DNA of 41,265 nt from Peribolospora baueri. Taxonomy: Eukaryota. Shown here one piece after another: positions 25,625 to 41,265 of this stretch (position 1 is its first letter; each line of letters starts with the position of its first letter). The notes beneath the pieces are model-generated. The model was not told the DNA's origin. It ran no database searches and saw only the letters and a program-made list of their open reading frames with translations. The translations under genes and the position numbers were made by a program. The stretch is taken from positions 1 through 41,265 of the forward strand of contig JAMDHS010000129.1 of NCBI GenBank assembly GCA_029717555.1, in the 5' to 3' direction.

Positions 25625-27679
25625 TTAGTCTCGGTACTGAGCACAGACACAGTAGATGGGGAAGAGTATAGGAAAAGAGGTCGGGAGACGAAGAAGCGAG
25701 CAAGGGGGCCAACGTCAGTATGGAAGATGCTCGCCCAGAATTAGAAAAGGCGCCATCGACCGACACCCAGTCGCCGCACCAGCCCGAGAACTTACCTTGT
25801 CCATGAATTGCTTGTGGAACTTGGAGATGCGCTCCACGAAAGCGTCTGTCTCCTTCGCGAGTCTGTTGGCATGCCGTCGAGGAACGAGGTGAGCGAGCAC
25901 CCCGGAAGCGACCATTTGAAACGTGGAAGACCACATCGTGGTGAGCTCACATCGTCGTCCTGAAATGGTACGTCCCCTCCACCTGCCCAAAGCCGGAGCC
26001 GGGAACTACGCAGATACCGGTCGCGTCGAGGAGCTCGAGACAGTAAAAGTCGTCCGGCTTCTTGCCGGCCTTTTGGGCCGCCTCGATGGCTCTGCGAGGG
26101 AGACGGATGCGCGGGAACAGGTACATTGCTCCCTGGGCCTCGTTGCAATCCACGCCCTCCATCTGAAGGAAAGCGTCTCGCATCTTGGTGACGCGCTCCT
26201 TCATGCGTAGATGTATGCGCTCCTCCTCCTGCTTGTAGAGCGCGTACGAAGGCTCACCCTCCCTAGGCGGACGTACGAGTAGGTCCACGCCGATTTGACC
26301 CTGCACAGAAGGGCAGAGCTGAATGGAGGCCAACTTGTACACCTGCTCCTCCACCTCGGCGTCGATGTTGACCAGCTCGAAGTAACCTCCCCTACGACCG
26401 CACTCGCCCGTCACACCCTTTGAGATGCTGTGGAAGCTCACGAGCTCCACGCCGTTAGCCACGTCGGTCCTTCCTCCATGCTGTGGTAGAGCAAAGTCGC
26501 GGAGGACCTTTTTAAAGGAGACGAACGGACGCTGCTCGGGCTGGTAGATGTTACGCTGGTAGACCTCGTCAGCGAGGAGGACGAGACGCTCCTCGTGAGC
26601 GAGCAAAACTACCTCGCGCATGTTCTCCTCGCTGAGCGTCGCGCCGGTCGGATTGCCCGGGTTGATGACTACCATCGAGCTGACATCCTTGCCTTCGGAA
26701 CGGGCTTGACGTATGGACTGGCGGATGGAGGGGACGTCGAGCGCCCAGTCACCGGAGGACTCGTTGAGATAGTAGGGCAACGCGTGGGCATCATGTAGAG
26801 CAAGGGTGGCGGTGTAGAGAGGGTACTGCGGAATGGGAATGAGGACGGCGGACGAGGGGGATGCAAGCATGATCTGGAAGAGCAGCGCCACACCGCCCGA
26901 GGCGCCCGACGTGAGGTAGATGCGCTCCGGGTCCGCGGGGTGACCGTCGCGCTCTGCGGGTGGTTCCAGCAGCCGAAAGAGCCCCTCCCCCCTAGTCAGT
27001 CACCAGGAGTTGGCAGACGAGACAAAGGCGCTCGGTGAGTGTGTGTGTGCTCACCCTCGATAAACTCGGCGACGTGCTTGCGAATGCTAGCGGCTCCCTT
27101 GGAGTGAGAGTAAGCGCCGACGGAATAGAGGTCGTCGAGCAGATCTTTGGCGCGGCGCTGAACGTCCGAAGGAAAGAGCGAGGAGAGGAGGGGCTCGGAG
27201 ATGGACTTGACGAGAGAGGGCAGCTCCGTCAACGCGGCGACCTGTGGGGCGAGGACGAGGTGAGCAGAGTGATGAGGGCGTCACGACGCTCGCTCACAGT
27301 AGGGAAGTGGGCTGACCTGGCGCCAGAATGTCAGCGGCTCCTGCTCGAGCCCTTCCTGCTGTGGGTTGCCGATGTTGGCGGTGACGACGCTGTCGAAGGG
27401 CAGCCCTCGCTTGTCACCGCTCCTGAGCCGGGTGGCATAGTCGTTGGCGCGGATGGAGAGCTCGCCGCGGACGGCGTACTGAACGTTGATGACATGCTGA
27501 TTGATCGTGCTCTTGGCCAGGACGGGCTTGCGAGCGGACGAGGAGGAAGAACGGAGAGGGGGCGAGGAAGAGGGCATGAGGGACGAGGGAGACAGGTAGG
27601 CAGTTGTGAAAAGGAGGCTTGGGGTGGTGACCCTGGGACGGAGGAGGGGAAGCGGGACGACGGGGCGGACGTAGGGCAT
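25625..27679 (-). CDS. ALT1: Alanine aminotransferase (PLP-dependent, class I)
   Basis: YAVRGELSIRA, ANIGNPQQ, SVGAYSHSKG, LIPIPQYPLYTA, VVINPGNPTG, LLADEVYQRN, PLP-lysine motif SFHSISKGVTGECGRRGGY and GICVVPGSGFGQ..GTYHFRTT. Terminal exons 25863-25797 and 25636-25625 (YRD*). Confidence 0.95.
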
Positions 27680-30595: not shown

Positions 30596-30807
30596 ACTCT
30601 CCCGCTCTAGACAGTTCCTTTTCACCTCGCGCCCGCCTAGATCCACGTTCGTAGTAAAGTCGGATCTAGTTCAAGACGTTCACCTTCGTCCTCGGCCGCC
30701 TTCGTTGTCCCGACTGGCTTCGTGTCAAGCCGTCCACCTCCGGTAGCGATCGGCGTCCTGCTCACGCCTTGGACCTAGCCGCGCTTGACGGCAAGCTTGA
30801 CGCCGCG

Positions 30808-33800
30808 ATGATCATCCAAGGCGCCTCGTCTAACTTGGAGGACAAGCCTGATCCTCGCTCGCCCGAGGCTGCGTCTCCTTTTGCCCTTCAGGACGACGCG
30901 GAGCCTAAGAAAACCTTCAAGTTTTCTGCCTTCCGCCGTCAGCGCGCTCCGGCCGTCTCCGACGCAACGGTCGTCTCCGCTCTGTGCAAGTTTGCCGCGG
31001 TTTCTGCCCAGGAGATGTTTGCTCTGCAGCCGCCGTCTCGTCCCGTCGGTTTGTTCGAATCCGAGGTACAAGACCTTCGCGCCAAACATGGACTTAACGT
31101 GCTCACCGTCGGCCGCCAATCTTCGACCATGCACCTGTTGTTCTTCGCCGCTGTCACGCCGTTCAATGGAATCCTCATCGTTTTGGCCGCCACCGCAATC
31201 GGCACTGGCGATCATGCCACCTTCGCGGTCATGCTCATCATGGTTGTTGCAAGCACGATCTTGCGCTTCGTTCAGGAAAAGAAGAGCACCATCGCCGCCG
31301 CACGCTTGGTCGCAGACAACGTGTCCAGCACATGCTACGTGCTCAGGAAGCAGGGCAGTCCGACCGCTGCTCGCATCGGCGAGTTCGAAACGGAGGAAGG
31401 GGCCATCGTGATCCCTCGAGACCAACTCGTACCTGGCGACGTGCTTTGTCTGGCTGCCGGCGATGTGGTACCTGCCGATGGCGTCGTCATCTCGTCCAAC
31501 TCCATGCTCGTTAACCAAGCAACGCTGGTATGTCACCATCTCATCGTCCGCGTATATTCGCTCGACTCTGCCACCTAACGCTCAGCACGTTCGTTTTGGC
31601 AGACCGGTGAAATCTTCCCAGTGGAAAAGGTCCCCAAGCTTTCATCCCTTCCGCCGAACGAGACGCCTGATCAAAATGGTGACGAATCGCCAGAAGGAGC
31701 TCAGCTGGACGTCATCTCTGCGACTAGTATCTGTCTGTCAGGTACAAGCGTTGTCAGTGGAAGCGGTCGAATGCTCGTTCTGGGAACAGGTGACAGTGAG
31801 TGACTTCCCCTCAACTCTGTGATCTCTGCCTAGTGTCGGCTTCGCTGACTTGCACACCCGTTTCAATTCCACATAGAAACATATATGGCTTCCATTGCGG
31901 GTGCTCTGGCGGGCAAGCGTGTCCCGAACTCTTTCGAGCTCGGGATTCGCCGAGTGTCATACGTGAGCCCATGCTCCCATCAGCACAGGCTTGACCAACT
32001 GTTCCATTCTGATATGACGGATATGATATGACCCTTTTCGTACGGCGTTCGTCCAGTTGCTCATCATCTTCTGCGCTGTGATGACGCCCATCGTCTTCAT
32101 CATCCAAGGCCTCGTCAGCAAAGATTGGAAGCAAGCACTCTTGTTCAGTATCTCTGTTGCCGTGGGACTCACGCCCGAAATGCTGCCTATGGTCGTCAAT
32201 TCGAACCTGGCAATCGGAGCGCTCAAGATGGCGCGTGATCGGGTCATTGTCAAAAGACTCGATGCGGTCCAAAACTTGGGCGGGTGCACCGTCTTCTGTA
32301 AGTACTGTAGATGGCGGACAGAGACTTGGGGTCGGGACCTCACATATCCTTCCATCGTCTCCAGGTTCTGACAAGACAGGTTCCCTCACAAAGGACGAAG
32401 TCGAGTTGGTCACCTCTGTGGACGGTCAGGGCAAGCCGTCATCGCTCGCCTTGCGCCTCGCTTTCATCAATGCGCACTTTCAGACCGGATCTCGGTCTCT
32501 TCTTGATGCGGGTATCGTCGGCGCCCACGACGAAGTGATTGCTAGCGCGGGCATCACAGATGGCCGGGATGCACTGACGCAAGACGTGTCTACACTAATG
32601 GCCCGCGGGGAGGTGCCGTTCGACAGCGCTAGAAGGCTTCTCACCGTCGGAGTCGTACCCACCGACGAGGCAGAAGGCAAGAGCGTGTTCCTCATCACTA
32701 AGGGCGCCGTCGAGGAGTTGGTGTTCCGATGCACCACCGTCATTACCGAAGACGAGGCTGCCACCGCAAGCGTGATTTCTATGCCGCGTTCCAAGCTCCT
32801 CACGACAGAGACTCGGGCTGATCTTCACCGGACGGCCGGCTCTCTCAACCGGGAAGGTCTCCGTCTCGTAGGCGTGGCCGTCAAGGCTTCCGTCTTCTAT
32901 CCTTCAATGGGTCTGACGTCCGAAGATGAATCAGATCTTTGCTTCGTTGGCTTCCTTGGCTTCCTCGATCCGCCGAAACCGGACGCCAAAGACGCCATTG
33001 ACCACTTCCGTCGCTGGAATGTTGATGTCAAGATTTTGACCGGCGACTCTCCTGCCGTGGCTGTCAAGGTGGCTCGCGACATTGGTCTTCTGGACGCTTC
33101 GTTGCCCTTCCCGGACGTCGAGCGACCAATCGATGTCGAGACGTTACTCGAGGCAGACTCGACCAAGCCGTCCGTGGTCACAGGCAACGATTTGTGTCTC
33201 ATCAACGATGGCGACGAAGAGGTAGCGCGCGAACGCATGCGCACCGTCGTCCAGCACGCCGTCATCTTTGCTAAATTGAGTCCGCACCAGAAGCTCGAGG
33301 TGGTTGACGCTTTGCGCTCTCTCGGCCACACTGTCGCCTTTCTCGGCGATGGCGTCAACGACTCGTTGGCGTTGCGCCGAGCTGATGTAGGCATTGCCGT
33401 CGATGCCGGCACTGACATTGCCAAGGACGCAGCGGACATCATCCTGCTCGAGAAGAGCTTGGCCGCTATTGGAAAGGGCATGGTGTTCGGCAGGGTCACC
33501 ATGGTCAACACGCTCAAGTACATCAAGATGGCCGCGTCGAGCAACGTGAGTCCATCCAGGATTGCACTATGGCACGTAATGCTGCTGATTCCCGGCCGTC
33601 TTTCCCGTACCCAGTTCGGCAACGTGTTCTCGGTTTTGGTCGCCAGCGCGTGGCTTCCGTTCACCCCAATGGCCCCGCTGCAGCTCTTGGTACAGAACCT
33701 TTTGTACGACTTTTCTCAAGCCAGCATTCCGTGGGACAATGTAGACAAAGAGCTGCTCGAGATGCCCAGATCATGGGGGGCCGGCTCGATAGCCAAGTTT

Positions 33801-34341
33801 ATGATCGTATTCGGCCCCACGAGCTCGGTCTTCGACATTTGCACCTTCTGTCTAAACTGGTGAGCATTTGATTATGAATGATCTGTGAGCGGCACTGTAC
33901 TCACTTGGTCTTTTCAGGTTCTTCTTCGGCATCCGCACGGGCGACTCGCCCTTGGTTCCGCGCGCCCAAACGCATTGGTTCCTCGAAGGACTCCTGACGC
34001 AGCTCTTGGTCGTCTATTCGCTGCGCACGCCCCGGATCCCTTTTCTCCAAAGCCGGCCTTCCATCTCAGTCCTCGCAACTACGTTGGGCCTAGGCGCCGT
34101 AGGGGTTGCGATCCCGTGAGCTCGGTTCTTTCTCCCATCCTCCATCTACGAGACTTGCTAACAAGGTGGTCTTCCTCTGTGTGATTGCAGTTTCATCCCC
34201 CCCATCGCGAGTGCCTTCTCGATGATGCGGCCCGCAGGCATCTTCTTCGCTTTCCTCGTCCCCATCTTGTCGGCCTATCTGGTCCTCGTCCACATCGTCA
34301 AGCAGATCTATCTGCGCATCTGGAAGGGAGAGTGGATTTAG
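30808..34341 (+). CDS. mgtA: Mg2+-transporting P-type ATPase, type P3B (MgtA/MgtB-like), 8 coding exons
   Basis: P3B-diagnostic strings LRFVQE, VAVGLTPEMLPMVVNSNLAIGA, VIVKRLDAVQNLG, CSDKTGSLT, FLDPPKPDA, KILTGD, FLGDGVND, YIKMAASSN/FGNVFSVLVASAWLPF.PM.PLQLLVQNLLYDFSQ..IPWDNVD, FGPTSSVFDI, QTHWFLEGLLTQ..V...LRT.RIPFLQSR and C-terminal VKQIYLRIWKGEWI*. Intron donors at 31528, 31796, 31963, 32299, 33546, 33860 and 34116, all joining in frame. Confidence 0.92.
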
Positions 34342-37855: not shown

Positions 37856-39965
37856 TTAGTCACCACCCCTTCTTTTGTCCTTAGCATCTATCCTCCTGAG
37901 CGCATCCGTCGCCATCCTCTGTCCGGCCTGCAGACCGATCGCGTGGGAGAACTCAAAAGCTCGACGGAAGTATGAGCGCGCTAAGGAAAGGTCGTTGGCC
38001 ATCTGAATTAGGAAGCACGAGAGGGGAGATGCCAATGGCGAGACGGGTGGAGAGAAGAAGTTCGTATCAGCCAACCGAGCCAGATTAGAACATCTAGACG
38101 ACGACATCCACACGTCAGTTACCCTGTTGCGCAACGTACCTCCCCGAGAACGCCCAAGTTGAACAACAACGTCGCCCTCGTCCTTTGACACATCTCGGCT
38201 TCACTCTCGTCCAATTTCTCCGTTTTCTCGTTCGACGCGATCGAAGACGCCCCGCCACCCAATGCCGCCAGAGCCCGCCCCTCGTCCTGGGTGGTGAGAC
38301 CTGCGTCTCTCCGAGCAAAGTCAACGATTTCCAGGCCTTTTTGAGCCCAGGCCATGGCCTGGTCGATAGTTGAGGACTTGGGATCAGCAACAAGGACTTG
38401 GGCGAGATTGTTCATAATAATGCCGGCTGCCGGGAGCGGAGGAGAGATGGGGTACGTGGGACCATCGACGAAGCCCAGTGCGACGGCGACGGTTAGCTCG
38501 GGTCGTCTCTTTCAAGTAAAAATTCGCCCTCAGAACTTGCCGCTCTCACCTTGACAGCGGTCGGTGACAGATGGTCTAAATGGGCGAGGTTTTTCTGGCG
38601 TCGAAGGCGGCATCAGAACAGAGAGAGCTTGCAGGTAGAGCGGTACGGCGTATCTGTCCAAAGGAAAGTTCAATACGTGAGCAATAGGCCATTTCAAGCG
38701 AATTAAATCAACCCCATGTCGCAGAGACTCACTCCGCGTTGCCCTCCCGTGCATAAAACTGGCCCAAGCTCTCCAGCGCCGGGCCAACATCTTGCTTGCT
38801 AACCCAGGGAGGTAACTCAAGCTCTCCGATTGTCATCCTCTCACTCTCCTTCAACAGCGCGTCTTCATCGTCTGTTTTCCCACCAGCCATGACTCGTTCT
38901 GCCTCCGCCTTCATCCTTCCGCTCAATGTGAGCTTCAATAGCTCCTCTAAGCTCCAGATGAGGTAGCCTTCCTCCTCCGCCGAGCCCGACTTTACGTCCG
39001 GGCTCTGAGCGAGGTCGCCCAGTTTCTGAGCAATGGAGGCAGCGCGCAGTCTCTCTCTGGGCTTGAGCACCTTCTGCCTCTCAACGCTCAGCGGGGCAGG
39101 GCGTTGTCCAGAGGTCATTCCGCCGGTATCGGTGAGCGAGACGTAATCTTCATTTGGACCGCGAATCTCGTCGAAGGTGGCGCTCAGCACGTCGTATGCC
39201 TTTTGGTCTTGACCTGTGCCTTCATAAAGGGAGGCGAGAGCTATTGCAATTCCCGTCGTCTTGAGCAGACGGTCTGCACCAAGACGCTCATCGGGAAGGG
39301 AGCGTGACGTTTCTAGGGCCCTGTGGGATCGAGACAGGTAGATCACGAAGCGTCGTCAGACTCTGAACAATGGCGTGAGTACAGCCGAGACAAAATGTGG
39401 GCACCAACTTAAGAAAATGTGCCTCCGCTCTGATAGGGTCTCCTCGGTGCTGCGCTTTTAACGCCGTCCTCAAGTCGCCACGAACCTCCGCAGGCCACTT
39501 GGAGAAGGACGTGTAGAATTCGTACCTGTTCGTGTAATTCGAACAGCAGGCCGTGAGAACCATGAAATGTGATGATGTCCACAAAATGAGCGCTCACAGG
39601 CCGTAGCTAGTCAATGTCAAACCGAACAAAGTAAGGCTACAAGAGTGAAGGTTCAAAGACGCGCCCCTCGATTAGCCGAACTCATCGCAGATATCAGGAG
39701 AGAGTACCATCAATAGGTATACAACATACGCCGTAAAGGCCACGCCAACCCTGAGCCGATTATGTCCCGGTGGTGGTGGGGGAGGTCTGAAGCTTGAGCT
39801 GGCAGTCGAAGTGAGCCTGCCGGCAGTGACCGGAAAAGATAATGGCAGAGCGGACGACGACAGCTTCGAGGGAGAGCCGTTGCCGAAGCGAGGCTTCATT
39901 GTCGTACCCCGCATAAGCCGCATGAGCGGAGGCGCTCTCAAAAGAGGAGCTGTCGAAGCAGACAT
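37856..39965 (-). CDS. Mitochondrial membrane TPR-like protein, probably Mgr3-like (i-AAA protease adaptor)
   Basis: Presequence-like N-terminus and a single TM (GVAFTA/LTLFGLTLTSYGL/YEFY), then WPAEVRGDLRTAL, LLKTTGIAIALASLYE, LESLGQFYAREGNAE/YAVPLYLQAL, MNNLAQ and LLFNLGVLGE TPR-like helices. The Mgr3 assignment is from architecture only. Confidence 0.55.
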
Positions 39966-40741
39966 CGCTAGTGTTGGGGCTCCGACGAGTTGGTGTGCGA
40001 GTGTCAGGCGGCCTGGCCTGGCTTGCCGACGGACTGAGGTTGGACTCGTTGAAGATCAACACTTGTTCCCCGCCGCAGTCCGATCGATCAGACGGCAGTC
40101 CCGAGAGCTCTGGTCGCTGATGAGAACCAGCTGATGGAGTTAACGTCGGAGAGCGGGAGAGTTACTCTATCTATGGCGCAGATGTACCATTCTCTATCGT
40201 TGCAGCCTCTGCATGCGAAAGTGTAGCGGTACAGGCGGTGTGAAGAGCAGGAAGCCTGTCTGTTCACCTCGGGGTTAGGTTTGCTGGTTTTCCTCTACTC
40301 CATCCCCGACACATCTACCCCTTGGTATGCTTATCGGCCGATCTGTATTTATGTCTATGCTCTTAATTTCAGATTGTAAGAAAGAAACGAAGTGAGGAAG
40401 ACGGTCATAGGGGGCCGTCGGCGAGACGGCGGCGGCGTGCGCCTGGGCCGAGGTGGGCCGAAGACCCGAGAGAGCATGTCCTCCAGCGTTTCTTCCAGGC
40501 GTGAAAGTCAAGGGAAAGGGAGGAGAGCGGCGGCTGAGTGGAGTAGGGAAGGAGAGCCGCATTGCCGAAGGAGTTTGCGAATAAAGTCGGAGTGGTCCTC
40601 GTCAATCGCGGCAAGGACCTGGACAACGTCAGCTTGGCCCGGATGATTGCGTCCTGCGCAATGTGAGGCAAAGACGAGTCGTGAGGAGGGAACGGGGGAG
40701 GCACACGCTCGCGCTTCTGTTGACCGCCTTCCTTCGAAGCC

Positions 40742-41265
40742 ATGTCCGAGGCCGTCACTACCCCCCTTCCCCGCACCCCGCCCTGCGGCGCCAATCCGCA
40801 CGCCTCGGCCACCGTTTCCGGCCTCCACCGGCCCCTGCTGCGCCTCCTCGCCAATGGCGAACCGGTCACCGTCGACGAGCTCGCCGGTGCCAGCGGTCGC
40901 CCGGTCACCGACGTGGCCCGCACGGTGGAACGCTGGCACGACGCTGAACGGGACGACGCCGGGCGCATCGTCGGACTCGGCATAACCCTCAGGCCCACGG
41001 CGCACCGGTTCACCGTCGACGGGCGTGACCTCTACACCTGGTGCGCCTTGGACACGTTGATGTTCCCCGCCATCATCGATCGGACCGCCATGGTCGAATA
41101 GCGCTGTCGCGCTACCGGGGCCGTCGTCAGGCTCACCGTCCACCCAACCCACGTCGGCGCCGTAGAACCGCCGACCGTCGTCTTCCCCGAGTCCTGGACC
41201 TCTCTGCGGTCCGCTTTCTGCGACCGAGTCCACTTCTTTGCATCTGCCGACGCCGCAGCGTCATG
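40742..41265 (+). pseudogene. merB: Organomercurial (alkylmercury) lyase MerB homolog with an in-frame TAG; runs off the window end
   Basis: LHRPLLRLLANGEPVTVDELA...[94 protein letters not shown]. It carries the WCALD catalytic Cys/Asp and the FC..VHFF catalytic Cys. Stop at 41099-41101, with homology continuing in the same frame. Confidence 0.9.

Follow-up and report, generated by a model that had tools for sequence, protein, structure and literature searches.

The window analysed here, 41,265 nucleotides that make up the whole of contig C32 (JAMDHS010000129.1) in the 22.7 Mb, 668-contig assembly GCA_029717555.1 of Peribolospora baueri, ends in the remains of a gene for the organomercurial lyase MerB. 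This enzyme splits the carbon-mercury bond of methyl- and aryl-mercury, freeing Hg(II). The data support a real, chromosomally integrated, bacterial-type merB in a basidiomycete, and the copy in the window is a pseudogene. The gene stands at three places in the assembly, in the window and on contigs C634 and C98, and all three copies are broken. We consider it likely that a transferred merB was once useful to this lineage and was then lost, the window copy being a dead, relocated duplicate. The identity of the gene, its lesions, its three copies, its single-copy depth, its presence in a sister organism and its ATPase neighbour are direct observations.

Identity and lesions of the merB frame

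An intronless MerB-like frame runs from an ATG at 40742 to the contig end (Table 1). When this frame is read through with X at the stop, it matches the Pfam MerB model (PF03243) with 90.6 bits against a cut-off of 27, the winged-helix model HTH_15 with 63.6 bits, and the NCBIfam models PRK13239 (204.7 bits, cut-off 193) and NF033555 (200.4, cut-off 200), and it aligns to solved MerB structures with an E value of 9e-38. The motifs WCALD and FCDRVHFF are both present. Pfam, NCBIfam and the motif check thus agree with the preliminary description, which had recognized an intronless MerB with its winged-helix segment and both motifs. Of 49 conserved columns 44 are retained, while overall identity is about 60%. 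PMC8261052 gives Cys96, Asp99, Cys117 and Cys159 as the MerB signatures, with Cys96, Asp99 and Cys159 as the catalytic residues. The DNA holds equivalents of all four (C101, D104, C122 and C160), though not within one open reading frame in any of the three copies.

Table 1. Features at the merB end of the window, in coordinates of the whole stretch
Feature	Position	Strand	Remarks
Neighbour gene, 5' part	38729..39965	-	fungal, intron-containing; single-copy in all four runs
Dispersed fungal repeat	40061..40701	.	cut short where merB is joined; also present on C14, C542, C147, C643, C306
5' flank of 41 bp from the C634/C98-type locus	40701..40741	+	junction with repeat at 40701, 1-bp microhomology
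merB pseudogene, codons 1-174 of about 225	40742..41265	+	cut by contig end; 3' end identical to C634 copy
Open reading frame actually encoded, 119 aa	40742..41101	+	winged-helix part and Cys96/Asp99 equivalents only
Stretch of 243 bp deleted in frame in the C634 copy	40801..41043	+	5-bp microhomology; specific to the window copy, at single-copy depth
C101 and D104, corresponding to catalytic Cys96 and Asp99	41042..41053	+	both kept in 120/120 homologues
Premature TAG, codon 120	41099..41101	+	column is Ser in 119/120 homologues; same TAG in C634 copy
C122, equivalent of Cys117	41105..41107	+	3' of the stop
Final 127 bases	41139..41265	+	identical to C634
Deletion of four codons	41174..41185	+	approximate site; 11-12 additional bases in contigs of the sister organism
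C160, equivalent of catalytic Cys159	41219..41221	+	3' of the stop

Two lesions separate the frame from a functional gene. The first is the in-frame stop at codon 120; the second is the absence of four conserved residues near codons 146 to 148, in a conserved strand, as seen in alignments to solved MerB and to homologues. Neither was among the observations of the preliminary description, and the working lyase that it implied is not supported for this copy. From its sequence, the window copy would yield at most a 119-residue fragment, predicted to lack lyase activity.

Ways around the stop were considered. Recoding of TAG is ruled out, as the CrpA and ACR3 frames end in TAG, an ordinary stop in this genome; TAGs within the ACR3 and DLD matches fall at intron ends and so lend recoding no support. 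Excision of the stop by an intron was rejected as well: there are ten in-frame GT..YAG candidates, none with a GTRAG donor, and each would delete C101/D104 or C122. Two sigma-70-like sites were set aside, one lying in the fungal repeat and the other within the coding region.

Copies, surroundings and chromosomal integration

The three copies are damaged in different ways. In addition to the shared TAG, the C634 copy has lost the 243-bp stretch that carries Cys96 and Asp99; it nevertheless supplies the C-terminus missing from the window. The C98 copy, 92% identical, is reduced to a frameshifted 5' stub that has a 7-bp deletion and breaks off at an LTR. A single difference, at 41138, separates the window and C634 copies over their common sequence, and the contig stops exactly 127 bases beyond it, as expected if the two copies merge there in the assembly graph. 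The downstream record that they share stops 29 bases into a copied fragment of RSE1, which means that both carry the merB-RSE1 junction.

A gene at the end of a contig and next to a repeat might be a bacterial contaminant or an assembly chimera, and the preliminary description had asked that a chimera be excluded, with even coverage as one test. Depth was taken from four public contig sets of one study (contigs, not reads), two from organism A (X1, X2) and two from organism B (X3, X4); one of the four runs may be the source of the assembly. Among the public records listed, none of RNA covers 39000-41265, a result that does not bear on expression. The record specific to the window copy has a depth of 114.5 in X1, against 114.7 for the 39-kb flank, and of 85.7 in X2, against 90.4. 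Stretches common to C634 stand at about twice single-copy depth, and the joint of the 243-bp deletion stands at 117 (X1) and 90 (X2). merB is covered in all four runs. It is present in organism B too, which differs from organism A by about 1% over the neighbour gene (10 differences in 983 bases). Contamination is unlikely because the copy-specific depth equals that of the flanking fungal genes and because the gene recurs in the sister organism. Moreover, merB lies inside C634 between two fungal sequences, linked there to host genes, its lesions are common to copies, no contig bearing merR was found, and the merge with the C634 copy accounts for the contig end. Against this stands the junction at 40701, which no contig among the records listed spans. 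Overall, we regard a contaminant or chimera at the contig end as extremely improbable.

The junction itself can be approached through the graph. Two-copy records of X1 and X2 stop at 40669 and start again at 40701, and the junction bin holds a depth of 296 and 239, respectively, that the listed records leave unexplained. The corresponding remainder is 3.3 in X3 and 4.6 in X4, where the repeat continues unbroken. The shape of the graph and the depth thus indicate that the join probably exists and is confined to organism A.

The location in the window is secondary, merB and 41 bp of flank having been joined into the repeat, and C634 is the older site; the neighbouring gene in the window does not mark the original landing site. 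Its distance was given correctly, 776 bases separating its ATG (39965, minus strand) from that of merB. The TPR label once attached to it was not confirmed, Pfam giving no match on its exons. The open reading frames of the repeat are likewise without a Pfam match.

At the older site, merB lies between a CrpA-type ATPase and the fragment of the splicing factor gene RSE1. This internal fragment (L009:9064-9977), 3' of merB, keeps its introns, shares 95% identity with the RSE1 gene of C637 and stops where LTR-element sequence begins; it was copied as a fragment at the DNA level. The whole 8 kb of C98 (L010) is a patchwork. Besides the merB stub and its LTR, it contains the 5' portion of the ATPase (92%), the remnant of a chromodomain retroelement, an NmrA-like gene that has no introns (GC3 0.82) and, at 87-92% identity, a copy of the oxidoreductase found on C186. 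The fragments of ATPase, RSE1 and oxidoreductase next to LTRs point to the spread of a dead gene by repeat-associated copying.

On both C634 and C98, merB and a P1B ATPase gene with introns are arranged head-to-head, and about 750 bp separate merB from the first aligned stretch of the ATPase. The C634 ATPase looks like a native CrpA-type copper exporter, apparently intact, with the subtype assigned by inspection, since its collinearity extends over all domains and the best matches with a name are copper-resistance ATPases of the smut-group fungi Ceraceosorus, Violaceomyces and Pseudozyma. Its position beside merB may be due to chance. A second pump, Ccc2-like by inspection, is found on C550. 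On C3 (L113:4900-7080) an intron-containing arsH directly adjoins pieces of this CrpA-type ATPase (88-95% identity) that are scrambled and in part inverted, possibly the debris of a larger metal-resistance neighbourhood, and ACR3 is located elsewhere, on C132. The window has a P-type ATPase of its own at 30769-33863, MgtA-like by eye, for which Pfam gives general P-type domains only.

In a mer operon, merB would be linked to merR, merA and transport genes. The search, which covered merR and merA, returned neither gene from the assembly. MerR_1 gave no match in the assembly (12 of 14 control prokaryotes were positive), and phage integrase gave none either (14 of 14). The MerA model produced seven matches on three contigs, none over the cut-off, in a search that did not extend to fungal MIR-type reductases. 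The matches on two of these contigs score better as glutathione reductase and dihydrolipoyl dehydrogenase, and the match on the third is, by eye, an oxidoreductase of AIF/AMID type. The earlier remark that no merR or merA lies upstream in the window extends, in these searches, to the assembly, and the genome search proposed with it has yielded two further merB copies and no merA.

Origin, donor and host

Among the best 120 of 243 hits in the protein search, 20 carry organism names, comprising 19 Actinomycetota, one Bacillota and no fungus, and the best relative reaches 62% identity. In a search of 1.84 billion representatives of any length, none of the best 150 of 1700 exceeded 62%, and a metagenome search with the sister protein P0019 gave none closer than 59% to this MerB among the best 80 of 340. 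Sciscionella was the one organism identified through the clusters of 17 unnamed MerB hits, which included no named fungus. At the DNA level, similarity to 146 bacterial and metagenomic merB loci is confined to 40817-41260, at 67-73% in the ten best matches, with no likeness to these loci outside the coding region. Trees were built from 92 MerB rows and from 32 of these picked by hand, ascomycete MerB not being included; they place merB in a group of Actinomycetota plus Bacillota (SH-aLRT 93-95) beside four unnamed proteins (91-94). The homology search and phylogeny that had been proposed as checks thus lead to bacterial relatives, and a bacterial origin of the gene is supported by sequence comparison. 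The donor was probably actinobacterial, the phylum favoured by the named hits. It is statistically not fixed, because AU tests leave unrejected both a grouping with Proteobacteria (p 0.136) and one with Bacillota (p 0.156). The high-GC actinobacterial donor proposed earlier accordingly keeps the backing of 19 of 20 named top hits, and loses its exclusiveness in the AU tests.

Base composition is only modest evidence for a foreign origin. The earlier count of 178 G+C in 240 bases over 40741-40980 is correct, and the contrast drawn from it weakens over the whole coding sequence, for which G+C is 69.5% against a mean of 57.5% for the window and 53.8% for the amidase region. One of 4022 overlapping host windows of 522 nt equals merB, and it is because of this match and of the smaller difference over the whole coding sequence that the evidence is modest. 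GC3 is 0.83 in merB and 0.57-0.77 in eight host coding stretches of the window; in bacterial merB genes it is 0.88-0.93 in five of six and 0.71 in the sixth.

The transfer had been described as relatively recent, which is not supported: the best relative reaches 62% in protein, the ten best DNA matches 67-73%, the gene is held in common with the sister organism, and it has a duplicate at 92%. The transfer is older than the split between organisms A and B and older than the C98 duplicate; a very recent date would require a donor that has not been sampled.

An indirect route would take merB into this host by way of an ascomycete, for instance as cargo of a HEPHAESTUS-family Starship, instead of directly from a bacterium. 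PMC10104507 reports merA and merB as cargo of this family, and the present locus resembles that cargo in having a fungal merB next to a P1B metal pump, in DNA that undergoes rearrangement. There are differences from the cargo described there: the assembly yields no merA, no DUF3435 captain was seen close to the gene, the pump is apparently native to smut-related fungi, and the moves seen here resemble LTR- and repeat-associated copying of fragments. On C46 (L206:4595-4891), a decayed fragment of a recombinase with DUF3435, similar to Starship captains, does lie beside an LTR, and the intronless NmrA-like gene adjoining the C98 copy is ascomycete-like by impression only. The DUF3435 piece is short (24.6 bits) and its contig is unlinked, and no captain was seen in 20 kb of C634, in C98 or in the window, within an assembly of 668 contigs. 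Given the smut-group affinity of the ATPase, the absence of fungi from the named hits and the ceiling of 62% among the representatives, passage through an ascomycete seems to us very unlikely.

The host is a basidiomycete, as the preliminary description had thought probable. In a tree of one gene, the alanine aminotransferase, it falls outside the sampled clades of Ustilaginomycotina and Pucciniomycotina, which suggests a poorly sampled, deep basidiomycete lineage. Nothing in the protein search exceeds 65% identity to this aminotransferase (window 25947-26891). On C643, at about 56400-59300 (L012:6384-9345), a homeodomain mating-type gene (Homeobox_KN and Mating_N) is convergent with a STE3 pheromone receptor some 600 bp away, a very tight linkage of both mating-type loci; Pfam recognized no second HD gene in open reading frames picked from the next 10 kb of that contig.

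Probable past function, loss and significance

From these observations we infer the donor phylum, the past function, the order of events and the reason for loss. An ancestor of this deep-branching basidiomycete would have acquired a bacterial, probably actinobacterial, merB, which came to sit head-to-head with the host's own CrpA-type heavy-metal export ATPase, in the arrangement of C634 and C98. The gene was probably under selection for a time, its product cleaving methyl- and aryl-mercury to Hg(II). It may then have died through the nonsense codon ahead of the catalytic Cys159, followed by the 12-bp deletion, and the dead copies would have been dispersed by repeat- and LTR-associated rearrangements. 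In organism A only, merB with 41 bp of 5' flank and its downstream flank would have been joined into the repeat beside an unrelated gene. The nonsense codon appears to predate the duplication, as it is common to the window and C634 copies and to X4.

That the gene was useful for a time is suggested by the survival of its catalytic residues at about 60% identity and by differences that lean synonymous: among those listed between merB and organism B, with two runs pooled, 7 of 11 are synonymous against 27-33% expected (p 0.012-0.036). Alternatively, merB was dead on arrival, a piece of neutral bacterial DNA caught in the repair of a break, and every copy is indeed broken in a genome rich in shuffled fragments such as those of RSE1, the ATPase and the oxidoreductase. 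Yet bacterial likeness is limited to the coding region, behind a clean eukaryotic-type start, and together with the retained residues and the synonymous differences this makes an inert arrival quite unlikely.

A once useful and later lost merB also has to be set against continued function at a low level, either by leaky read-through of the TAG or from an intact allele in the sister organism. A stop followed by C is a leaky context in yeast, and C follows the TAG here. Two copies run together precisely at 41101 in X3, so that the base distinguishing them is the middle one of the TAG, and there are six A>C places in X3 against five in X4, which fits a serine codon; we infer from this, as a suggestion, that an uninterrupted allele survives in X3. 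If intact, that allele may make the loss of merB incomplete. On the other side, the window copy has only 41 bp of 5' flank and lacks four conserved residues, the older-site copy lacks Cys96 and Asp99, and X4 keeps the TAG, its record over codon 120 having five differences, all placed elsewhere. Residual activity is in our view unlikely, and loss remains the reading that we prefer.

A possible reason for the loss is that release of Hg(II) in a cell without MerA was a liability. According to PMC8261052, MerB without MerA is expected to be harmful unless Hg(II) is handled otherwise, which could give a possible reason both for sitting beside an exporter and for loss. The prokaryotes described there as having MerB only share the absence of MerA with the present case, which is set apart by its eukaryotic host and by the metal-export ATPase head-to-head at the older site. 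We also entertain, as a speculative and rather improbable proposal, a two-gene mercury module in which bacterial MerB frees Hg(II) and the native CrpA-type pump exports it in place of MerA, the two sharing the divergent intergenic region of about 750 bp, with an intact allele surviving in the sister organism.

Compared with bacterial MerB (PF03243, PRK13239; PDB 1s6l, 3f2g), the DNA described here has the same two-domain layout and the four signature residues, and differs in the stop ahead of Cys117 and Cys159, the four-residue deletion, the absence of merR and merA and the intron-containing fungal neighbours. The closest fungal parallel is MMD of Metarhizium robertsii, described in PMC9704736 as an active, horizontally transferred MerB-type demethylase. 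Both are bacterial-type organomercurial lyases in a fungal genome, attributed to horizontal transfer and with a patchy distribution; MMD is, by that account, intact and shown to be active, whereas the basidiomycete merB is broken. Within the portions of that source consulted, all 22 rows of Table S8 that list MMD homologues are ascomycete by name, and the string "basidiomyc" has no occurrence in text or supplement. A full-text literature search, with most subscription journals and preprint supplements outside its scope, found no report of a basidiomycete merB. Transfer of merB is known in ascomycetes, and the basidiomycete case is apparently new.

That the window copy is a dead duplicate limits its significance. 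At the wider locus, merB was the neighbour of a pump for metal export before its loss, which seems to have gone to different lengths in two closely related organisms, and the locus bears on the open question of how Hg(II) is handled in cells with MerB but no MerA. Should the module and the intact sister allele both prove real, the gain, use and loss of methylmercury demethylation could be traced in living basidiomycete strains. A separate acquisition by a basidiomycete would widen the set of soil eukaryotes that were once able to demethylate methylmercury.
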